Source: Haloferax volcanii DS2
GTDB lineage: Archaea; Halobacteriota; Halobacteria; Halobacteriales; Haloferacaceae
DNA: 32,000 nucleotides
Assembly (NCBI RefSeq): GCF_000025685.1
Contig: NC_013967.1
Location: 270,001-302,000, forward strand
Reading direction: 5' to 3'
Below the pieces are notes generated by a model. It was not told where the DNA came from and made no database searches. It was given only the letters and a program-made list of their open reading frames with translations. Numbering within the stretch: the stretch's first letter is position 1; each line of letters begins with the position of its first letter. The translations under genes and the position numbers were made by a program. Positions 1,412 through 26,738 of this stretch are shown here, piece by piece.

Positions 1412-2254
1412 TCAGCTCTCGCGGACGATGACGAACTCCGCGAGGTCGCGGAGATACTCCAGCGGCTCCGAGTCGTCGACGCCCGAGTCGTCCAGCGCCG
1501 ACAGCGCCTCGTCGGCCTGCTTGCGGGCCCGGCGGTTCGCTTCCTCGGGGGTCAGGTCAGTCACCTGCACGAGCGACGGCCGGCCCATCTCGGCGTCCTG
1601 TCCCGTGGGTTTCCCGAGTTCCTCGGCGTCCGCGGTGGCGTCGAGCACGTCGTCGCGGATTTGGAAGGCGACGCCGACGCGGGCCGCGTAGTCACCGAAC
1701 GCCTCGACGACGTGGGCGTCGCCGCTCGCGGCGACTGCACCGAGTTCGGCCGCAGCGCGGAACAGCGCGCCCGTCTTGCGATGGGCGAGCTGCATGTACT
1801 CGGCTTCGTTCGAGGGGACCGCGACCAGTTCGGTCGCCTCGCCCTCACCGAGTTCGACCATCGATTCGGCGACGATGCGGGTGGCGCGGTCGGACGACGA
1901 CAGGAGGGCGAACGCCTCGCCGAGCAGGCCGTCGGAGGCGATGATGGCCGGGCCGTAGCCGTACTCGGCCCACGCGCTCGGCGTGCCGCGGCGGATGTCG
2001 GACCGGTCGATGATGTCGTCGACGACGAGCGAGGCGTTGTGGACGAGTTCGACGCCGACCGCGAAGTCGACGGCGTCTTCGGGGGTGCCACCGACGGCCT
2101 CGCAGGCGAGGATGGTCACGGCGGGGCGGACGCGCTTGCCCCCCGCGAGAGCGACGTGGTCGAGTTGGTCGGCGAGCTCCGACGGCTCGACCGCCGAGAC
2201 GACCTCCTCGAGGCGGTCGTTTACCATCGTGACCCGGCGCTCCAGGTATTCCAT
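1412..2254 (-). CDS. idsA: Polyprenyl (geranylgeranyl) diphosphate synthase
   Basis: First Asp-rich motif is DDIIDRSDIRRG and the second is FQIRDDVLD. Start moved to ATG 2254 (MEYLERR). The ORF-track N-extension to 2374 is non-acidic and overlaps a repeat array. Confidence 0.85.
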   Translation of the reverse strand: MEYLERRVTMVNDRLEEVVSAVEPSELADQLDHVALAGGKRVRPAVTILACEAVGGTPEDAVDFAVGVELVHNASLVVDDIIDRSDIRRGTPSAWAEYGYGPAIIASDGLLGEAFALLSSSDRATRIVAESMVELGEGEATELVAVPSNEAEYMQLAHRKTGALFRAAAELGAVAASGDAHVVEAFGDYAARVGVAFQIRDDVLDATADAEELGKPTGQDAEMGRPSLVQVTDLTPEEANRRARKQADEALSALDDSGVDDSEPLEYLRDLAEFVIVRES

Positions 2255-2368
2255 TGTCGGTTCGTAGGGTCGGGTAGGGAAGTACGTACCGGATTTCCGA
2301 AAACCGAGCGCGGAGGCGGTCGCCGTCGGCGGTTCCTGACCCGTCAGCGAGGTCGAGATTGTGTGCCC

Positions 2369-2412
2369 TTTCACGTTCTCTCACGCTGGGCGTTTCACGT
2401 TCGTCCACGCTG
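2369..2412. repeat. Tandem direct repeat TTTCACGTTC-N3-CACGCTG x2, equivalent to four (T/C)CACG(T/C)T units
   Basis: Copies at 2369-2388 and 2393-2412, 17/20 identical. CACG cores start near 2372, 2382, 2396 and 2406, spaced 10/14/10 nt. Confidence 0.6.
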
Positions 2413-4374: not shown

Positions 4375-5553
4375 TTACTCCTCGTCTTCGTCCTCGTCGG
4401 GCAGCGAGATGAGGTTCTCGCGGCCGAGACGCAGCTTCTCGACGCGCTCCTCGTCGGCCATTGCCGACAGGAGCTGTGAGACCTTGGCGTCGGACCAGCC
4501 GGTCTCCTTGACGATGTTCGCCTGCTTCATCCGCCCGCCGTTCCGTTCCAAGAGGAGTTCGACCCGCTCTTCGTCCGAAAGCAGGTCGAGGTCGACGTCA
4601 ACCTCGTCGTGCTCCTCACCGTCGTCCGGTGCGGACTCGTCGGTCGGCTCCGGCGTTGGCTCCTGTCGCGGTTCGGAGCTCACCGACGCCCCGGCCGGCT
4701 CCGCCCCGCTCGGCCGCCGCCGCGTGAACAGGACGACGCCGGCCACGAGCACCGCGAGGACGACCGCGCCGCCGCCGACGAGCGTCCACGGGATGGCTCG
4801 TTCCGGGCCCGTCGAGACGTACGTCACGGTCAACTGGTCAATCGATTCGAAAGTCCGTGGTCCCTCGACGACGAGGGCGTTGTTTTCGAGCGGCAGGTTC
4901 GTGTCGCTGACGGCGTAGCCCGGCGGCGTCTGAATCGTGAGGTTCTGATTCGACCGAAGCGACGTGAGCCACGTCCCGTCGTCATCGGCCGACAAGGCGT
5001 CACCGAGACGCAGTCCCTCGTCGGTCTGTTCGAGGAAGTTGGTCCAAGTGAACGTCAACACGAGGACGCCGGTCTCGTTTTCGACGTAGCCCCTCCTCGT
5101 CGCGTTCTGAACCGCCATCGACCGGCCGGTCTGCTCGGCGGCCGTCTGACTGACGCGTTCGAAGAACGCCGCGTCGGGACCGGCGTCGACGGTTCCCTGC
5201 TCGTACTCCCGTGCGAACTCCTCGAACGCCGCGGTCTCGTTTTGCGTCTCGAGCTCGTAGCGCGTCTCGACCCGCCAGTTCGCGGAGCGATCAGCGCGTA
5301 GTTGAATCGAGACTTCCGTCTCCGGTGACCGTTCGAGCGTCGTCTGTTGGGCGGCGCGCGGTCCGCCACCGAGCTTCGCGAGCGTCGCTGTCTCGTCCGC
5401 GTCCGCGCTCGAATCGGTGACATCGGTGTCGGGAACGCCGGCGACCGCGTCCGCGCTCTGCGTGCCGGCCGCGGCCACGTCCGTGGCCGTCACTGGGACT
5501 GCGACGCCGGCGACGATGGTGAGGAGGGCAACGATGAGGACGGCGCTCCGCAT
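4375..5553 (-). CDS. Membrane-tethered winged-helix protein: signal peptide or anchor, ~250-aa ectodomain, one TM, acidic linker, C-terminal wHTH
   Basis: Start moved to ATG 5553 (MRSAVLIVALLTIVAGVAVPVTA). TM helix IPWTLVGGGAVVLAVLVAGVVLFT followed by RRR (nt 4723-4794). The C-terminal segment RMKQANIVKETGWSDAKVSQLLSAMADEERVEKLRLGRENLISL (nt 4402-4584) looks like a wHTH. Four N-x-S/T sequons in the ectodomain. Confidence 0.75.
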   Translation of the reverse strand: MRSAVLIVALLTIVAGVAVPVTATDVAAAGTQSADAVAGVPDTDVTDSSADADETATLAKLGGGPRAAQQTTLERSPETEVSIQLRADRSANWRVETRYELETQNETAAFEEFAREYEQGTVDAGPDAAFFERVSQTAAEQTGRSMAVQNATRRGYVENETGVLVLTFTWTNFLEQTDEGLRLGDALSADDDGTWLTSLRSNQNLTIQTPPGYAVSDTNLPLENNALVVEGPRTFESIDQLTVTYVSTGPERAIPWTLVGGGAVVLAVLVAGVVLFTRRRPSGAEPAGASVSSEPRQEPTPEPTDESAPDDGEEHDEVDVDLDLLSDEERVELLLERNGGRMKQANIVKETGWSDAKVSQLLSAMADEERVEKLRLGRENLISLPDEDEDEE

Positions 5554-5578
5554 ATACGTAAATCCGTTTCGTCCGGCG

Positions 5579-5586
5579 ATGAAAAC
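5579..5586 (-). promoter_or_regulatory. Possible TATA-like element (minus strand GTTTTCAT) for the 4375..5553 gene
   Basis: Centred about 29 nt upstream of ATG 5553. There is no AT-rich element upstream of the alternative ATG at 5595. Confidence 0.3.
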
Positions 5587-5666
5587 GCTTTCCATCGATT
5601 CAACAGCGTCAGACGCCGTCGACAGACGCCCCCGTCGTCGCCGTCGTCGACAGCAGCAAGAGGGTC

Positions 5667-5676
5667 ATTTTAGTAC
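5667..5676 (+). promoter_or_regulatory. TATA-like box (CATTTTAGTA) for the 5700..7091 gene
   Basis: Centred about 29 nt upstream of ATG 5700, in the 146-nt divergent spacer. Confidence 0.45.
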
Positions 5677-5699
5677 TGCCCCCGTGTACCCTCACGGCG

Positions 5700-7091
5700 A
5701 TGAAGGCCCTCCCACTCGTCGTCGTCATGCTCCTCGTGGCGTCGCCGGTGCTCGGCGCGGTCGGTCCGACCGACGGCTCGTCCCGCTCGCCGGCGCTCGA
5801 TGGGGCGACCCACGCACAGGTCGAGTCGCCGTCCAACGAGACGATTCACGTCCTCGATATCCCGTCGTCGGAGCTGGTTCGGTCGACGGTCGAAGCCCAC
5901 CACGTCGACCTCGGTCCCTCTCTCGACTTCTCCGCGCTCAGGGCCGGCGGGCGGATTCAGACGGGGGCGTCTCTCGAGCGCATCGAGTCCGCGAGCGACG
6001 ACAGCACCCGACAACAACTCATCCTCGACGAGCTAAACGGCATCGAGCAGCGCGCAATCGCGCTCCAGAGCGCACAGCGCTCCGTCATCGAACGGTTCAA
6101 CGACGACAACCTCACCGCGCGAGAGCTCCTCATCGAACTCGCGCGAATCGACGCCGAGGCGCGGGCGCTCAACGAGCGGCGCGTCGCCCTCCGTGACGTC
6201 ACGAGTCGAACGTCGGACTTCTCGATTAGCTCCGGGCGGCTCGCGGCGCTCGAACGCGAACTCGACACGTTCACCGGCCCCGTTCGGACGCACGCGGTCG
6301 CGGTCATGACCGGCGAGGCCGACGCCGCGCGGTTCTCCGTGCGGACGAGCGAGACCGGGGTCGTCCTCAGCGTCGTCGCCGACGGCGAGTACGTCCGCGA
6401 GGCCTACCGCGCGGACCTCCGCGACCGCGACCAGCGCACGGTCACCTACGAGGAGGCGCTCGACATCGTCGCGGAGAACTACCCGACCATCTACTCCAGC
6501 CGCACCGCACAGAACGGGACCAACGTCATCAGTGCCGGCGACAGCCACCGCGTGCGAATCAACTACAACTACGGGCAGTTGACGGCGTACGTTGACACCG
6601 GAAGCGGACGCGTGTTCAAGGAGTCCCAGACGCGTCCCCTCAGGTCGATTTCGACCACCGCCACCGCCACCGGGGTCAGAGACGGGCTGGCGCTCACCGT
6701 CGACCGGACCTACCCCGGCGGACCGCTCCGCATCCAGTTGAACGAAAGCGAGACGGGCGACCCGGTCGACGCGAACGTCACGATTGGACTCGAAGCCAGC
6801 CAGGAGAGCACGCTGTTGGGTCACACCGGTTCCGACGGGACGCTCTGGACCGTCTCGCCGTCAGCGCCCTACACCGTCACGGTCATCAAGGGCAACTCGG
6901 CGGTCGTGCTCACGGCCGATCCGACGCCCACGCCCACCCTCGCCGCGAACCCAACCGACACGGAAAACGACACGTCCCCGACGGTCACGTCGACGCCGAC
7001 CGAATCGATCGAGTCGCCCGGCCCCTCCCGGACGGTCCCGCAGGGCGCACCCGGCGACTCGCCAACGGTCGGTTCTCCGACGGTCGGCTGA
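5700..7091 (+). CDS. Secreted or surface protein of unknown function: Sec-type signal peptide, coiled-coil-like segment, Thr/Pro-rich C-terminal tail
   Basis: MKALPLVVVMLLVASPVLGAVG signal peptide. Helical heptad-like stretch QQLILDELNGIEQRAIALQSAQRSVIERF...LIELARIDAEARALNERRVALRD. At least six N-x-S/T sequons. Tail is DPTPTPTLAANPTDTENDTSPTVTSTPTES, with no terminal TM or PGF-CTERM-like anchor. Confidence 0.75.
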   Translation: MKALPLVVVMLLVASPVLGAVGPTDGSSRSPALDGATHAQVESPSNETIHVLDIPSSELVRSTVEAHHVDLGPSLDFSALRAGGRIQTGASLERIESASDDSTRQQLILDELNGIEQRAIALQSAQRSVIERFNDDNLTARELLIELARIDAEARALNERRVALRDVTSRTSDFSISSGRLAALERELDTFTGPVRTHAVAVMTGEADAARFSVRTSETGVVLSVVADGEYVREAYRADLRDRDQRTVTYEEALDIVAENYPTIYSSRTAQNGTNVISAGDSHRVRINYNYGQLTAYVDTGSGRVFKESQTRPLRSISTTATATGVRDGLALTVDRTYPGGPLRIQLNESETGDPVDANVTIGLEASQESTLLGHTGSDGTLWTVSPSAPYTVTVIKGNSAVVLTADPTPTPTLAANPTDTENDTSPTVTSTPTESIESPGPSRTVPQGAPGDSPTVGSPTVG

Positions 7092-7130
7092 CCGGAGCTT
7101 CTTATCCCATGACGGGACCACCCCGTCTCG

Positions 7131-7613
7131 ATGCCTTGTCAGTTCCGCCGCTCGACCCGCGGCTCGTCAGTACTCATCGGGAGCGTGCTCCTCATCGGTC
7201 TCGTGGTCGTCGTCGCGGCCGCTGTCGGCGCGGCGGCGTTCGACGCGGCCGACGCCTCGCCGACGCCGACTCGACCCACGGCGCTGTCGCTCGGGGTCTC
7301 GGGTGACACGCTGTCGCTGACTCACGAGGGCGGCGCGCCGCTCGACGTGGACTCGCTCGCGGTTCGTATCTCGGTGGACGGTGAGTCGCTCGCGCACCAA
7401 CCGCCCGTGCCGTTCTTCTCGGCCAGCGGGTTCCGGCCCGGCCCGACCGGCCCGTTCAACGCCGCGGCCGACCCCCGGTGGACCGTCGGTGAGACGGCGA
7501 CCCTCAAACTCGCGGGGACGAACGACCCGACTATCGAGCCGGGTGCGACGGTGACCGTCCGCGTCTTCGACGGCGACACGCCGGTCGCGGCGCTCGAAGC
7601 GACAGCGTCGTGA
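7131..7613 (+). CDS. Archaeal type IV pilin-like protein (class III signal peptide, DUF1628-type N-terminus) with a beta-rich C-domain
   Basis: N-terminus is MPCQFRRSTRG followed by SSVLIGSVLLIGLVVVVAAAVGAAAF. A charged segment ends in G and is followed by a hydrophobic helix, as in prepilin-peptidase (PibD) substrates. The gene lies 39 nt after the 5700..7091 gene. Confidence 0.7.
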   Translation: MPCQFRRSTRGSSVLIGSVLLIGLVVVVAAAVGAAAFDAADASPTPTRPTALSLGVSGDTLSLTHEGGAPLDVDSLAVRISVDGESLAHQPPVPFFSASGFRPGPTGPFNAAADPRWTVGETATLKLAGTNDPTIEPGATVTVRVFDGDTPVAALEATAS

Positions 7614-13382: not shown

Positions 13383-15143
13383 ATGAGTCAGGCAACACAA
13401 GATTCCGTTCGCGAGGACGGTGTCATCGCAAGCGTGAGTGGTCCGGTCGTGACCGCCCGTGGCCTCGACGCCCGCATGAACGACGTCGTCTACGTCGGCG
13501 ACGAAGGGCTGATGGGCGAGGTCATCGAAATCGAGGGCGACCTCACGACTATTCAGGTGTACGAAGAGACCTCCGGCGTCGGTCCCGGCGAACCCGTCGA
13601 GAGTACGGGCGAACCGCTGACCGTCGACCTCGGTCCGGGGATGATGGACGCCATCTACGACGGCGTCCAGCGTCCGCTGGACGTGCTGGAGTCGAAGATG
13701 GACTCGGCGTTCCTCGACCGCGGTGTCGACGCGCCGGGCATCGACCTCGACGAGAAGTGGGAGTTCGAACCCACCGTCTCCGAGGGCGACGAGGTCGCCC
13801 CCGGCGACGTCGTCGGGACGGTCCCCGAGACCGTGACCATCGAGCACAAGGTCATGGTCCCGCCGGACTTCGGGGGCGGCGAGGTCGTCGCCGTCGAGGA
13901 AGGCGAGTTCTCCGTCACCGAGGCGGTCGTCGAACTCGACAGCGGCGAGGAGATTACGATGCACCAGGAGTGGCCGGTGCGTCAGGCTCGCCCCGCCGCG
14001 GAGAAGAAGACTCCGCGCGAACCGCTCGTCTCGGGGCAGCGCATCCTCGACGGCCTGTTCCCCATCGCGAAGGGTGGAACGGCAGCGATTCCGGGGCCGT
14101 TCGGCTCCGGGAAGACGGTCACGCAGCACCAGCTCGCCAAGTGGGCCGACGCGGACATCGTCGTCTACGTCGGCTGCGGCGAGCGCGGTAACGAAATGAC
14201 CGAGGTTATCGAGGACTTCCCGGAACTCGACGACCCGAAGACGGGTAACCCGCTCATGGCTCGGACGTGCCTCATCGCGAACACGTCCAACATGCCCGTG
14301 GCGGCCCGCGAGTCCTGTATCTACACCGGCATCACCATCGCGGAGTACTACCGCGACATGGGATACGACGTTGCGCTCATGGCCGACTCCACCTCTCGGT
14401 GGGCAGAGGCCATGCGCGAGATTTCGTCGCGCCTCGAAGAGATGCCCGGCGAAGAGGGGTACCCCGCGTACCTCGCCGCGCGTCTCTCCGAGTTCTACGA
14501 GCGCGCCGGCTACTTCACGACCGTCAACGGCGAGGAAGGCTCCGTCTCCGTCATCGGCGCGGTTTCGCCGCCGGGCGGCGACTTCTCCGAGCCGGTCACG
14601 CAGAACACTCTGCGTATCGTCAAGACGTTCTGGGCGCTCGACGCGGACCTCGCAGAGCGTCGTCACTTCCCGGCCATCAACTGGAACGAGTCGTACTCGC
14701 TCTACCAAGAGCAGCTCGACCCGTGGTTCGTCGAGAACGTCGAGGACGACTGGGCCGAAGAGCGCCAGTGGGCCGTCGACGTGCTCGACGAGGAGAACGA
14801 ACTGCAGGAAATCGTTCAGCTCGTCGGTAAGGACGCCCTCCCGGAGGACCAGCAGCTGACCCTCGAAATCGCTCGCTACCTCCGCGAGGCGTACCTCCAG
14901 CAGAACGCGTTCCACCCGACGGACACGTACTGCTCCCCCGAGAAGACGTACGGAATCCTCACCGCCATCCACGCGTTCAACGACGAGGCGTTCAAGGCGC
15001 TCGAAGCCGGCGTCCCCGTCGAAGAGATTCAGGCCATCGAGGCGGCTCCCCGGCTGAACCGCATCGGTGTGCAGGAAGACTGGGAGGCGTACATCGAGGA
15101 CCTCAAAGCAGAAATCACCGAGCAGCTCCGCGAGCTGTACTGA
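13383..15143 (+). CDS. atpA: A-type ATP synthase catalytic subunit A
   Basis: Walker A is GPFGSGKTV. Also [17 protein letters not shown] and [11 protein letters not shown]. 586 aa, so no intein insertion. Confidence 0.97.
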
Positions 15144-15147
15144 GACC

Positions 15148-16554
<1,407 letters not shown>

Positions 16555-16683
16555 ACCGCGGCGAACGCCCCGTTCGTCCCTCGGTTCGATTCTCCTCTTC
16601 TATTCGCGCCACTCGCCTCCCGAGCCGCGCGGCCGCGCGTCGCCCGCGAGAACTTCCTTACGTCTCGGCCACGACGACTCCGC

Positions 16684-18660
16684 ATGGACGCCACCTCGTC
16701 TCCCACCCGCGTCCTCGCGGTCGTCGGTCCCGCCGTCGACCGGGAGCGACTCGTGGACGTGCTCTCGCCGCTTTCGGTGTCGGTCGCCCCCTCGGTCGAC
16801 GCGGCCGGCCGGCGCGCCGAGGCCGAATCGGTCGACTGCGTCGTGCTCGGAACCGACCGCCTCGCCCACGTGAACGCGGTCCACGGTGCGCTCGCGGTCC
16901 CGCTGGTCGTCGTCGTCCCGCCCGACGGCGACCTCTCGGCGGCGACCGCCCGCGACGCGGGCGCGGCCGACGTGGTCCCGGTCGTCGACTCGAACCTCTT
17001 CGAACGGCTTCCAGAACGGGTCGAAAGCGCCGTCGCGTGGCGTCGCCGCGGCGCGGCGGCCGCGAGCAAGATTACGGAGGACCTGAAAGAACAGGCGATA
17101 GACGAGGCTCCGGTCGGTATCACCGTCGCGGACTGCTCGCTGCCCGACCGACCGCTCGTCTACGTCAACGAGGCGTTCGAGACGATGACCGGCTACTCGG
17201 CCGACGCGGCGCTGGGGCGAAACTGCCGATACCTTCAGGGACCGAACACCGACCCCGAGCGGGTCGCCGAACTCCGCCGCGCCATCGAGGCCGAAGAGTC
17301 GGCGTCGGTCGAACTGCTGAACTACCGCGCGAACGGCGAGACGTTCTGGAATCGGGTCGACGTCGCGCCGCTGAGCGGGTCGGACGGTGAGGTGACGCAC
17401 TACGTCGGCTTCCAGACGGACATCACCGAGCGCGTGCGCGCAGAGGCGGCCGCCGAGCGGTACGCCGCTCGAGTCGACGAGGAGCGCGCGCGCCTCCAGA
17501 CGCTCGTCGAGCACATCGAGGGGTTGTTGGCGGACGTGACGAGCGCGCTCGTCCGCGCCGAGAGCAGACAGGAACTCGAAGCGGCCGTCTGCGACCGCGT
17601 CACCGCCGCGGGGTCGTTCGACTGCGCGTGGGTCGGCCACTGCGACCTCTCGCCGGCGGTCATCGTTCCAAACGAGCGGGCCGGAACGGACACGGAGTTC
17701 CTCGACGGCCTCGAAATCAGTCGGTCGAATCCCGACGACCCCACGGCTCGCGCCGCGGAGACGCGGACCGTCCAGTCGGCGGACGTCGGCGACGGGAGCG
17801 TCTCCGCCGAGACGCTCGTCCCGTTCGGCTCCGTCATCGCGGTCCCGCTGGTCCACAGCGGGACGCTGTACGGCGTCCTGACGGTCTACACCGACGTCGC
17901 GGAACTCGACGACCAAGTCCGGGTGGTGTTCGGGACGCTCGGCAGGGCGGTCGGCGCGGCCATCGACGCCTTCGAGAGCCGGCGGTCCCTGCTGTCCGAC
18001 GAGCGGCTCGAACTCGAACTCGAGGTGCGCGACGAGACCCAGCCGTTGGTCCGACTCGCCGTCGCGGGCGACTGCGAACTCTCGTATCGCGGTTCGGCCC
18101 AACACGACGACGGGACCGTGAGTCTGTTCGTCTCGACGCACCCCGCGACCGAGTTCGGGGAAGCCGACACCGACCTCGACGGCCTTCGAAGCGTCGACGT
18201 TCTCCCCCGCGGCGACGACGCGGAACTCTACGAGCTCACCTTCGACGACGGGTCGCTCCTTCACCTCGTCGCCGACGCGGGTGGGCGGCTCGTCGACCTC
18301 GAAGTAGACCGCCTCGGCTGTCGGCTCACGGTCATCATTTCCGACCGCGTGGCGGGCCGGGCGCTCCTCGACGACTTGCAGACGGTCGCGGCGAACGCCG
18401 AACTCCGCTCCGTCACGAATCGGTCGGAACCGCCGGAGGCGCGCCGCGAGTTCGTCGCGAGCGTCACCGACGACTTCACCGACCGACAGCAGTCGGCCCT
18501 CCAACTCGCCTACCTCGGCGGCTACTTCGAGTGGCCCCACGCCGTCACCGGCGAGGAACTCGCGGAGACGACGGGCGTCTCGCGGGCGACGTTCCACCAG
18601 CACCTGCACGCCGCGGAGCGCAAACTCATCTCCCGATTTTTCGACAGCAACCCATACTAG
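16684..18660 (+). CDS. Bat-type one-component regulator: degenerate receiver-like domain, LOV (PAS) domain, GAF domain, BAT-like region, C-terminal HTH_10
   Basis: LOV core is ITVADCSLPDRPLVYVNEAFETMTGYSADAALGRNCRYLQGPNTD...LLNYRANGETFWN...HYVGFQTDIT (about nt 17086-17433), with the adduct Cys codon TGC at 17224-17226. GAF-like segment about nt 17521-17973. HTH_10 is LTDRQQSALQLAYLGGYFEWPHAVTGEELAETTGVSRATFHQHLHAAERKL (about nt 18475-18639). Confidence 0.85.
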   Translation: MDATSSPTRVLAVVGPAVDRERLVDVLSPLSVSVAPSVDAAGRRAEAESVDCVVLGTDRLAHVNAVHGALAVPLVVVVPPDGDLSAATARDAGAADVVPVVDSNLFERLPERVESAVAWRRRGAAAASKITEDLKEQAIDEAPVGITVADCSLPDRPLVYVNEAFETMTGYSADAALGRNCRYLQGPNTDPERVAELRRAIEAEESASVELLNYRANGETFWNRVDVAPLSGSDGEVTHYVGFQTDITERVRAEAAAERYAARVDEERARLQTLVEHIEGLLADVTSALVRAESRQELEAAVCDRVTAAGSFDCAWVGHCDLSPAVIVPNERAGTDTEFLDGLEISRSNPDDPTARAAETRTVQSADVGDGSVSAETLVPFGSVIAVPLVHSGTLYGVLTVYTDVAELDDQVRVVFGTLGRAVGAAIDAFESRRSLLSDERLELELEVRDETQPLVRLAVAGDCELSYRGSAQHDDGTVSLFVSTHPATEFGEADTDLDGLRSVDVLPRGDDAELYELTFDDGSLLHLVADAGGRLVDLEVDRLGCRLTVIISDRVAGRALLDDLQTVAANAELRSVTNRSEPPEARREFVASVTDDFTDRQQSALQLAYLGGYFEWPHAVTGEELAETTGVSRATFHQHLHAAERKLISRFFDSNPY

Positions 18661-18674
18661 TCGGGCGGCTCCGG

Positions 18675-18680
18675 TTTTTT
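18675..18680 (+). terminator. T6 run 15 nt after the stop of the LOV regulator
   Basis: The sequence is ggctccggTTTTTTgacgg. An oligo-T tract acts as an archaeal terminator. Confidence 0.4.
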
Positions 18681-18732
18681 GACGGTCGCTCAACGGCTAC
18701 CGCCTCCGGTGCGCCGACTTCAGCACCCGTGG

Positions 18733-18769
18733 CGACCTGCGGACTGAATCGCGGTCTCGACCTGCGGAC
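18733..18769. repeat. Perfect 12-nt direct repeat CGACCTGCGGAC x2 (period 25) upstream of atpD
   Basis: Copies at 18733-18744 and 18758-18769, 90-126 nt upstream of the atpD ATG. Confidence 0.6.
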
Positions 18770-18818
18770 GTGACACTTCCAAGCACGCCCGATTTCGCCC
18801 GGTCCGGCCGGCCAGACA

Positions 18819-18830
18819 GTAAAAGATTAA
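18819..18830 (+). promoter_or_regulatory. TATA-like box (GTAAAAGATTAA) for atpD
   Basis: The only AT-rich element in the spacer, centred about 34 nt upstream of ATG 18859. Confidence 0.45.
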
Positions 18831-18858
18831 CACCCCAGGCGAACAACCCCCGGCAACG

Positions 18859-19566
18859 ATGGCCGAAGACGTCAAGCCGACCCGCAAGAACTTGATGGCG
18901 ATCGAAGATCGCATCGAACTCTCCGAGCGGGGCCACGACACGCTCGAACAGAAGCGTGACGGGCTCATCATGGAGTTCATGGACATCCTCGACCAGGCCC
19001 AAGACGTGCGGGCCAACCTCAATCAGGACTACGAGCGCGCGCAGAACAAAATCAACATGGCCCGCGCCATGGAGGGCGACGTGGCGGTCCGCGGCGCGGC
19101 CTCCGCGCTGAAGGAGTACCCCGAAATCACGACGCAGTCGAAGAACATCATGGGCGTCGTCGTCCCGCAGATCGAGTCCTCGCGCGTCAAAAAGAGCCTC
19201 GACCAGCGCGGCTACGGACTCCTCGGCTCCTCGGCCCGCATCGACGAGGCCGCGGACGCCTACGAGGAACTCCTCGAATCCATCATCCTCGCGGCGGAAG
19301 TCGAAACGGCCATGAAGAAGATGCTCGAGGAAATCGAGACGACGAAGCGCCGCGTCAACGCGCTCGAATTCAAACTGCTCCCGGAGCTGTACGAGAACCA
19401 GGAGTACATCGAGCAGAAGCTCGAAGAACAGGAGCGCGAGGAGATTTTCCGCCTGAAGAAAATCAAGGCGAAGAAGGAAGAAGAAGAAAAAGAAGAACGC
19501 GCCGCGGAGAAGGCGGCGGCCGAAGCCGACGCGGACGCAGACGCGGAAGCGGCGACCGCAGACTGA
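18859..19566 (+). CDS. atpD: A-type ATP synthase subunit D (central stalk)
   Basis: [40 protein letters not shown] is the typical V/A-ATPase D N-terminus. The C-terminal tail is Lys/Glu-rich. Confidence 0.93.
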
Positions 19567-25324: not shown

Positions 25325-25342
25325 TACCTTACTAGTAAGGTA
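25325..25342. promoter_or_regulatory. 18-bp perfect palindrome TACCTTACTAGTAAGGTA, a candidate operator
   Basis: Checked base by base as self-complementary. It sits in the most AT-rich island of the argS/zinc-finger spacer, 5 nt upstream of a TATA-like box. Confidence 0.5.
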
Positions 25343-25347
25343 GTAGT

Positions 25348-25355
25348 GGTATATC
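25348..25355 (+). promoter_or_regulatory. TATA-like box (GGTATATC)
   Basis: About 60 nt upstream of the ATG at 25413. The quasi-symmetric sequence could also fire on the minus strand. Confidence 0.35.
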
Positions 25356-25412: not shown

Positions 25413-25565
25413 ATGAGTCAATGCAACCACTGCGATGCGTTCGTGTCGAACAACTTCGTCCGCGTCTTCGGTGACGAGGACGGCAACGTCTACGCGTGTC
25501 CCAGTTGCTCGGCGAACGCGGGTATCTCACAGGTCAGCTCCGAGCGGCGGGCGTCGTCGCTCTGA
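25413..25565 (+). CDS. Small zinc-finger protein (50 aa, CxxC-N21-CxxC), below the ORF-track size cutoff
   Basis: Manual translation: MSQCNHCDAFVSNNFVRVFGDEDGNVYACPSCSANAGISQVSSERRASSL, then TGA at 25563-25565. It resembles the small CPxCG-type zinc-finger proteins common in haloarchaea. GC3-rich. Confidence 0.55.
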   Translation: MSQCNHCDAFVSNNFVRVFGDEDGNVYACPSCSANAGISQVSSERRASSL

Positions 25566-25997: not shown

Positions 25998-26738
25998 ATG
26001 GGGCGCGCGTTCGAAGCCGGGAGTATGTCAGAATCGGCAGTCGCCGCGGCGGTCGGGTACGACGAGTTGGCCACGCTCAAGCTCGTCGCGCTCGACGGCG
26101 GGCGCTCCGGCCCGGTCAAGCTCTCCTGTTCCGGCGTCGCGAATCGACTCGACGTGTCGAACCAGACGGCCTCTCGCCGGCTTCAACGCCTCGAAGAGGC
26201 CGACTTCATCGACCGCGAGGTCGTCTCCGACGGCCAGTGGATAACCATCACCGACGCGGGCGAGTCCGCGCTCAGACAGGAGTACGCCGACTACCGACGC
26301 ATCTTCGAGACGCCCTCCGTGGTCGTCCTCGAGGGCCAAGTCACCGGCGGAATGGGCGAGGGTCGCCACTACATCTCGCTTTCGGGCTACATGAAGCAGT
26401 TCAAAGACCGACTCGGCTACGAGCCGTTCCCCGGCACGCTGAACGTCCGCCTCGACGACGACGCGGTCCGCGCCCGCGCCGGGATGACCGCCCTCGACGC
26501 GGTTCCCATCGACGGCTGGGAGGACGACGAGCGCACCTTCGGCCCGGCGACGTGCTACGCCGCCTCCGTCACGGTCGGCGGCGACTCCTACGAGCCGGTC
26601 CACATCATCGTCCCCGAGCGGACCCACCACGACGAGTCGCAACTGGAGATAATCGCGCCCGACAAGCTCCGCGACGAACTCGACCTCGACGACGGCGACG
26701 CGGTCACGGTCCGCGTCGAGGAGGCGGAGTACGAATGA
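25998..26738 (+). CDS. ribK: CTP-dependent riboflavin kinase fused to an N-terminal wHTH (RbkR-like bifunctional regulator/kinase)
   Basis: The kinase half has [34 protein letters not shown] (archaeal RibK PGTLN signature). The N-terminal half has [33 protein letters not shown] (wHTH). Start at ATG 25998 or 26025. The ORF-track start at 25788 was rejected. Confidence 0.85.

Follow-up and report, generated by a model that had tools for sequence, protein, structure and literature searches.

Known regulators and the locus examined

The activator Bat of Halobacterium salinarum governs a regulon of bop, brp, crtB1 and blp. Sites for it precede bop, brp and crtB1 (PMC1447603, PMC1502140), and its upstream site has been defined genetically (PMC1502140). 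The small zinc-finger protein Brz is needed there for bop and crtB1 expression, and homologues and paralogues of Bat are accompanied by small zinc-finger genes (PMC2253796). The stretch examined here is a 32-kb window of a haloarchaeal chromosome (about 67% GC), in which the A-type ATPase genes atpB and atpD flank an open reading frame (ORF) for 658 aa. Its product, from this point on LOV-Bat, has the PAS-GAF-BAT-HTH_10 core in common with Halobacterium Bat. Compared by features, the likeness extends to the coupling of its orthologues to bop, retinal-synthesis genes and crtB, to a candidate activator site just 5' of a TATA box, and to an association with small zinc-finger genes. The differences are that Halobacterium Bat has a PAS domain without the Cys that forms the adduct (Losi 2014, PMC4844311), whereas LOV-Bat has a full canonical LOV domain; that LOV-Bat adds an N-terminal pseudo-receiver; and that no opsin is left in Haloferax. 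With a probability of roughly 0.6, we read the gene as the Haloferax orthologue of the Bat activators of bop modules, left on its own when the opsin and retinal genes were lost, maintained since, and furnished with a predicted operator.

Several other described systems share part of this design. BAT-LOV* of Halorubrum hochstenium has the same receiver-LOV-GAF-HTH architecture and its isolated domain binds flavin, but it carries Pro for Cys and signals by flavin photoreduction, whereas LOV-Bat keeps the Cys (Yee 2015, PMC4682037). EL222, a bacterial one-component factor of the LOV-HTH kind, likewise couples LOV to an output domain, but is a two-domain LOV-LuxR protein without GAF-BAT-HTH_10. 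ALovD-1 from Halonotius has the same GXNCRYLQ variant of the LOV motif and is the single canonical LOV domain from Archaea for which a photocycle has been shown, at up to 3 M salt, but it comes from a histidine kinase and lacks GAF-BAT-HTH_10 (PMC12202551). LOV-Bat fits the LOV-HTH class, (RR/GAF/PAS)+LOV+nPAS+kGAF+HTH, of Losi, Mandalari and Gaertner, who remarked on its resemblance to Bat in a survey that gave no genomic context, operator or targets; none of its LOV-HTH proteins had been studied (Losi 2014, PMC4844311). As for the gene arrangement, Verma (2020, PMC7755889) found that in many haloarchaea the genes for subunits B and D are separated by bop, crtY, bat and blh, and in the Haloferax isolate pws11, which is without bop, by "only bat", as in the window. 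That paper asked what bat does in pws11; the insertions were held to be possibly random, LOV was not recognised, and neither loss of an ancestral module nor an operator was proposed. Both the class of protein and the arrangement of genes are thus already published; the predicted operator and zinc-finger target described below are new details. The sequence-only reading of this DNA knew of no functional characterisation of such a protein, and this agrees with the literature on canonical-Cys LOV-Bat proteins (Losi 2014, PMC4844311; Valle 2025, PMC12202551), the Cys-less BAT-LOV* being the only such domain studied (Yee 2015, PMC4682037). Searches of the literature for HVO_0318, of which the gene is probably the orthologue from gene order alone, and for blue-light responses in Haloferax returned no report.

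A canonical LOV domain in a Bat-type regulator

Features of the gene and its surroundings are collected in Table 1. Every coordinate given by the sequence-only reading matched when the sequence was checked again, including the ORF between atpB and atpD and the TGC codon of the photoadduct Cys, which is that of Cys181. Profile searches of the ORF returned PAS_9, GAF_2, BAT and HTH_10, all above the Pfam gathering scores, so that the proposed GAF-like domain and HTH_10 motif downstream of LOV are joined by a BAT domain. The nearest proteins come from Haloferax, with 98% identity in a metagenome-derived sequence and 92% in H. prahovense, H. chudinovii and Atlit strains.

When residues 125-268 were used as a phmmer query, the top matches in PDB were exclusively LOV domains (E 3e-35 to 1e-26), namely phototropin LOV1, aureochrome, YtvA, the Brucella and Erythrobacter LOV kinases, and the RNA-binding LOV receptor PAL (6hmj). 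The alignments to these solved domains run without gaps across GRNCR(F/Y)LQ, LLNYR, FWN and GFQTD, and NCBIfam models of the YtvA family and of blue-light histidine kinases match the same stretch. The peptides on which the LOV assignment had originally been based, GRNCRYLQGPNTD, LLNYRANGETFWN and YVGFQTD, are all found in the ORF. Cys181 and the flavin contacts R182, Q185, R198, N213, N223 and Q244 stand in register with the PDB LOV domains; Asn/Asn/Gln contacts had been proposed. These contact residues are invariant or nearly so among 27 family members, and the F-to-Y variant in the motif is common in the clade. An AlphaFold (AF2) model built from 27 homologues has a mean predicted local distance difference test score (pLDDT) of 82, rising to about 90-95 over residues 140-250. 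Its LOV domain superposes in Foldseek on Phot-LOV1 and Brucella LOV (1n9l, 3t50, 6ph2) at 0.7-1.2 A with template modelling (TM) scores of 0.92-0.96. By alignment and model, LOV-Bat is a Bat-type regulator with a predicted LOV domain of the canonical-Cys kind.

How general the Cys is within the family depends on the search used. It is kept in 120 of 120 word-indexed matches, all close relatives included, a figure biased upwards because a word-indexed search favours the motif; the patterns of the genome scan likewise required Cys. To re-estimate the proportion, a query of the C-terminal part only was followed by an unbiased hidden Markov model (HMM) search of 1.8 billion cluster representatives. 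This search found 62 proteins with the same architecture and a LOV-like domain, of which 52 (84%) have Cys and 10 (about 16%) have P, H, I, Y or A instead. Orthologues therefore generally retain the Cys; the Cys-less variants are fewer, and the close relatives of the Haloferax clade include none of them.

The N-terminal segment had been taken for a pseudo-receiver lacking the DD pair, the T/S and the Lys, and both a family profile and the model confirm this. The segment is modelled by AF2 as a (beta-alpha)5 fold, and a profile of 16 family N-termini matches PDB receivers at about 6e-16, among them KdpE, PhoP and PleD, including the second, non-phosphorylatable domain of PleD. Relatives of LOV-Bat score against PF00072. 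In the window protein V14/G15 occupy the place of the acidic pair, G56 that of the phospho-acceptor, V78 that of T/S and V100 that of Lys. The catalytic set is thus absent, and across the family the acceptor position may be G, V, D, A, S, R or E. Since this position is unconstrained family-wide, the degeneration belongs to the whole family and not to Haloferax alone. The receiver is degenerate and cannot be phosphorylated.

Origin of the position between atpB and atpD

The genome-contig scan, whose loci carry L numbers, listed mostly unrelated LOV proteins together with at least about 20 full-length relatives. Among the loci listed, 10 related ones have bop and/or crtY/blh after LOV-Bat, with atpD coming next. 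The full order atpB, LOV-Bat, bop (243 aa), crtY, blh, atpD occurs in a Halopelagius inordinatus-type contig, Halostella salina, Halobellus, Haloplanus litoreus and a Halobacteriales metagenome-assembled genome. Partial modules occur in Salinigranum (bop and crtY), Halorubrum (bop alone) and Halosimplex (crtY and blh). In the last case, the locus of Halosimplex aquaticum (L018), crtY and blh lie between the B and D genes without an opsin, a second kind of partial decay, and the same two genes are reported there without opsin in Halobacterium (Verma 2020, PMC7755889). Altogether bop, crtY, blh or crtB adjoin LOV-Bat orthologues in at least 17 loci. All four are absent from the window, and tblastn with Bop, CrtY and Blh found no remnants of the opsin module in it. 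The genes past atpD (DUF6276, aRF1) are common to the window and its relatives.

In a neighbour-joining tree of the LOV-to-HTH sequences, three Haloferax proteins nest within a clade that is both bop-linked and atp-linked, which suggests that the gene owes its position to an opsin/retinal module since lost. Loss of bop-crtY-blh in Haloferax with retention of the activator is the simplest reading of these contexts, and would explain why LOV-Bat alone now seems to split the ATP synthase cluster. The sequence-only reading had asked whether the gene always lies between atpB and atpD. It stands beside atpD in all Haloferax examined, but in two relatives (L082, L084) it adjoins bop/crtY away from the atp genes. 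Similarly, the insertion does separate atpD from the rest of the cluster in the window, but in relatives bop, crtY and blh are inserted as well.

Although orphaned, the gene remains an unbroken ORF in all Haloferax species that the search returned, with identities as low as 57%. The ratio of nonsynonymous to synonymous substitution rates (dN/dS), calculated by the method of Nei and Gojobori for the window gene against H. prahovense, is 0.18 over the whole gene, with 0.036 for LOV, 0.12 for HTH, 0.14 for GAF, 0.20 for BAT and 0.44 for the receiver-like segment. Judged by these ratios, the gene is under purifying selection and not decaying, and it is best described as an orphaned yet selectively maintained LOV-type Bat. 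Its own promoter element is likely the TTCCTTA upstream of the ATG, which would give a leaderless mRNA.

A candidate operator

In eight loci still possessing bop, the motif CC(n)AAC(C/T)AGT(T/G) starts 50-53 nt 5' of the bop ATG, its centre lying about 46-50 nt from the ATG, and often overlaps the LOV-Bat stop codon. Halohasta has it as the perfect palindrome ACCATACTAGTATGGT. To measure enrichment, the pattern ACCnnACTAGTnnGGT was searched for, with the expectation taken from shuffled sequence. In 25 full-length LOV-Bat loci (339 kb) there are 4 exact matches (0.00 expected) and 11 with at most one mismatch (0.30 expected). The corresponding numbers in 60 unrelated LOV loci (624 kb) are 0 (0.00 expected) and 1 (0.35 expected). 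Where bop, a hop-like gene or crtB stands beside LOV-Bat, the palindrome lies 5-9 nt 5' of its TATA-like box. Ten of the loci with it stood outside the derivation of the motif: it precedes crtB, for phytoene synthase, in L006, L007, L009, L156 and L177, hop-like rhodopsin genes in L010, L011 and L179, and bop in L131 and L151. A metagenome scan with the extended palindrome TACCnnACTAGTnnGGTA added further haloarchaeal cases upstream of bop, of crtB, of one hop-like gene, and of two secreted fasciclin-like genes. This set of genes parallels the Halobacterium Bat regulon. Adjacency, together with analogy to the Halobacterium Bat site, suggests that LOV-Bat binds the predicted operator. The palindrome itself presumably resembles the site in the Halobacterium bop promoter, a likeness that we take as a lead and not as a test.

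Two of the neighbouring gene types deserve mention in their own right. In the Natronomonas-like loci L010 (3661-4527), L011 (8401-9273) and L179 the neighbour of LOV-Bat that carries the palindrome is, in place of bop, a hop-like rhodopsin of 288-293 aa with 27-30% identity to Bop, and LOV-Bat may control different pump types in different lineages. In contigs of a hypersaline brine metagenome, TACCnnACTAGTnnGGTA stands 42-47 nt 5' of fasciclin-like proteins of 173 and 200 aa with twin-arginine (Tat) signals (L123, 2147-2164; L143, 3066-3083); these secreted proteins may belong to the Bat regulon and have gone unnoticed in it.

Within the 32 kb of the window there is one perfect match, ACCTTACTAGTAAGGT, where an estimated 0.002-0.004 would be expected by chance. 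It is found 71 nt upstream of an ORF for a 50-aa CPxCG-type zinc-finger micro-protein. In H. mucosum, Haloferax sp. MBLA0077 and the KTX1 group, the site and its TATA box are kept amid diverging flanks 5' of the zinc-finger gene, and a zinc-finger homologue of 69% identity bears an ACCAGT variant of the site. This zinc-finger gene is the best candidate for a target of LOV-Bat. It is probably the orthologue of HVO_0325, by gene order alone (argS, zinc finger, rbkR = HVO_0326, ribB). The sole palindrome-like match at the polyprenyl synthetase gene (window 1412-2374, minus strand), which serves isoprenoid and carotenoid precursor supply, has three mismatches and lies inside coding sequence, and was taken as chance.

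Directly after the zinc-finger gene comes rbkR (25998-26738; the ORF is listed from 25788), an HVO_0326-like gene for an HTH protein with a cytidine triphosphate-dependent riboflavin kinase, and in relatives ribB follows rbkR (L085-L097). These genes make riboflavin and flavin mononucleotide (FMN), the LOV chromophore; their presence about 7 kb from a LOV gene may be coincidence. In L082 (12840-13031) and L084 (11580-11747), DUF7576 zinc-finger genes of 55-63 aa lie a few kb from LOV-Bat and bop, and echo the recurrent pairing of Bat-type regulators with zinc-finger micro-proteins.

The spacer between LOV-Bat and atpD

The spacer was aligned among five Haloferax species (the window, H. prahovense, H. 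denitrificans, Haloferax sp. MBLA0077 and H. larsenii). At its start, overlapping the LOV-Bat stop codon, is a copy of the activator site with two mismatches, CCCATACTAGTCGGGC. It occupies the place of the bop upstream site in orthologues that still have bop, has eroded further in H. prahovense and disappeared from the three other species; it is probably a fossil of the lost bop promoter. The T6 run that follows starts at the same offset from the ACTAGT core as do the TATA-like boxes in the bop promoters of relatives. It is intact in the window alone, degraded in H. prahovense and absent from the other three. The 12-nt direct repeat CGACCTGCGGAC is present in the window and in H. prahovense only, where the copies read CGACCCACGAAC and CGACCCACAGAC; both are altered at the same inner positions (CTGCGG to CCACGA and CCACAG), which resembles concerted change. 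Folding of the RNA of 18700-18800, around the repeat, gave no significant structure against shuffled sequence (z = -0.72), and an Rfam search of the whole window gave no match. A scan for sigma-70 promoters and intrinsic terminators, ill-suited to archaea, returned nothing.

The T6 run, the repeat and the TATA-like box had all been placed exactly by the sequence-only reading, but the first two are not conserved past the closest relatives: they are real but lineage-specific. In contrast, the block in front of atpD, running GGCCAGACAGTAAAAGATTAACACCCC...ATG and including the TATA-like box TAAAAGATTAA, is nearly invariant in the five species. Conservation thus upholds the earlier suggestion that atpD has a promoter of its own, and in Haloquadratum atpD is reported as a monocistronic unit (PMC5496347). 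Autoregulation of LOV-Bat and control of atpD through the palindrome were both considered and rejected, no match with three or fewer mismatches being found upstream of bat or in the atpD block.

Table 1. Features of LOV-Bat and its surroundings in the 32-kb window
Feature	Position	Strand	Residues	Remarks
atpB, A-type ATPase subunit B	15067..16554	+		Pfam match; true start probably near 15148
TTCCTTA element	16654..16660	+		centred 27 nt 5' of LOV-Bat ATG; kept in five Haloferax
LOV-Bat gene	16684..18660	+		658 aa, ATG start; pseudo-receiver, LOV, GAF, BAT, HTH_10
Pseudo-receiver domain	16684..17067	+	1-128	CheY-like fold
LOV domain	17086..17433	+	135-250	motif GRNCRYLQ
PAS_9 match			145-249	Pfam E 5.8e-23
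Cys181 codon TGC	17224..17226	+	181	predicted flavin C4a adduct-forming cysteine
Long LOV-GAF linker helix	17426..17556	+	248-291	J-alpha-like signalling helix in model
GAF_2 domain	17560..17967	+	293-428	Pfam E 9.7e-10
BAT domain	17998..18456	+	439-591	Pfam E 4.5e-32
HTH_10, DNA-binding domain	18475..18630	+	598-649	Pfam E 2.7e-19
Decayed activator-site copy CCCATACTAGTCGGGC	18651..18666	+		2 mismatches; overlaps LOV-Bat stop codon
T6 run	18675..18680	+		14 nt past ACTAGT core of decayed site
12-nt perfect direct repeat CGACCTGCGGAC	18733-18744 and 18758-18769	+
atpD promoter block	18806..18858	+		includes TAAAAGATTAA (18819-18830); nearly invariant in five Haloferax
atpD, A-type ATPase subunit D	18859..19566	+		ATP-synt_D, 6.9e-59
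Perfect palindrome ACCTTACTAGTAAGGT, predicted LOV-Bat operator (upstream activating sequence, UAS)	25326..25341	.		8 nt 5' of TATATC box (25350-25355)
CPxCG-type zinc-finger micro-protein, DUF7563	25413..25565	+		50 aa; 68.8 bits, cut-off 27

The remaining neighbours can be dealt with briefly. The start of atpB is probably the internal one given in Table 1, since relatives call proteins of 468-475 aa, and atpI, E, C, F and A lie further 5' of it. Window 4375-7613 holds haloarchaeal DUF genes (DUF7345/7343, and DUF7096/7094 with archaeal Fn3) and a type IV pilin-like gene, all apparently unrelated to LOV-Bat.

Proposed mechanism and alternative explanations

If the LOV domain behaves as its sequence predicts, it would bind FMN and blue light would drive formation of an adduct between Cys181 and the flavin. 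The change would be relayed via helix 248-291 to the GAF-BAT module, and altered binding of an HTH_10 dimer at ACCnnACTAGTnnGGT, 5-9 nt 5' of the TATA box, would activate transcription. In the window the intact site precedes the 50-aa zinc-finger gene, which recalls Brz, the bop co-regulator of Halobacterium. Tentatively, then, the orphan LOV-Bat of rhodopsin-free Haloferax could be a working blue-light switch, with ACCTTACTAGTAAGGT driving a Brz-like zinc-finger micro-protein (probably HVO_0325) and perhaps carotenoid or flavin genes outside the window. Several points weigh against our reading. For canonical-Cys LOV-Bat proteins neither flavin binding, nor a photocycle, nor DNA binding has been reported from experiment. 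The motif was derived in part from loci in which it was then counted, and its assignment to LOV-Bat draws on adjacency and on the Halobacterium analogy. The operator scan covers 32 kb of the genome, the wider Haloferax regulon (crtB, for example) lying beyond its scope. Finally, deletion of HVO_0325 gave no phenotype in the conditions tested, all without light (PMC6562870, PMC8305020).

Flavin redox sensing also keeps some weight because Halobacterium Bat answers low oxygen besides light and because Cys-less relatives exist. The LOV domain would then be mainly a redox or oxygen sensor in the manner of NifL or Aer, which would fit with the way that low oxygen induces the Halobacterium Bat regulon. 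Models of NifL and of oxygen-sensor PAS domains do score, weakly, against the domain, Cys is replaced by P, H, A, I or Y in about 16% of the family representatives, and BAT-LOV* links flavin reduction to a conformational change without the Cys (PMC4682037). We regard this as unlikely for the window protein, whose clade strictly keeps the full LOV signature with its Cys and whose LOV domain has by far its best matches among photoactive ones and evolves at a dN/dS of 0.036; moreover, an archaeal GXNCRYLQ domain photocycles in 3 M salt (PMC12202551). A distinct question is which protein occupies the palindrome. It might be bound by a Brz-like zinc finger or an HTH_10 paralogue, with LOV-Bat acting elsewhere or as a partner, given that in Halobacterium the transcription of bop and crtB1 needs Brz, an effect independent of the level of bat mRNA (PMC2253796), and that haloarchaea have many BAT-type paralogues (PMC13464002). 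The enrichment of the motif is specific to LOV-Bat neighbourhoods, where it often overlaps the LOV-Bat stop codon, and the Bat upstream site is genetically defined in Halobacterium (PMC1502140), so that binding by another factor seems rather improbable.

The fixed place beside atpD had led to the suggestion that LOV-Bat links light to energy-metabolism genes, possibly via the 12-nt repeat. The adjacency is indeed conserved throughout the Haloferax examined, atpD has its own promoter, and a two-mismatch palindrome and a T-run lie just upstream. Loss of bop-crtY-blh accounts for the adjacency, three of the five species lack the repeat, the T-run and the decayed site, the invariant atpD block is without the palindrome, and the repeat region shows no significant RNA fold. 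Light control of atpD is accordingly very improbable; the position is historical and not a mark of atpD control. That LOV-Bat is instead a functionless relic on its way to a pseudogene might be argued from the loss of its cognate neighbours, the fast-evolving receiver-like domain (0.44) and the report of a Haloferax isolate without any bop (PMC7755889). An ORF intact in all species sampled, a dN/dS of 0.18 overall and of 0.12 in the HTH, and a conserved candidate operator elsewhere in the genome make this the hardest of all to credit. The orphaned but maintained LOV-type Bat activator is the reading that we retain.

Implications

The split ATP synthase operon of Haloferax would be the scar left when a proton-pump module was lost: a pump driven by light would once have lain, together with its light sensor, inside the genes of the enzyme that uses the gradient. 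The findings join three strands of literature, namely the LOV surveys, the bat/bop insertions in ATPase operons, and the Bat upstream site, and they bear on the route by which light reaches the Bat regulon, a question standing since the 1990s. They also yield a testable set in a tractable model organism, comprising one regulator (probably HVO_0318), one residue (C181), a 16-bp predicted operator and a small adjacent gene. If the reading is true, no earlier LOV-controlled transcription circuit in Archaea would have been open to genetics, and haloarchaeal optogenetics would have a promoter and its regulator ready for use.

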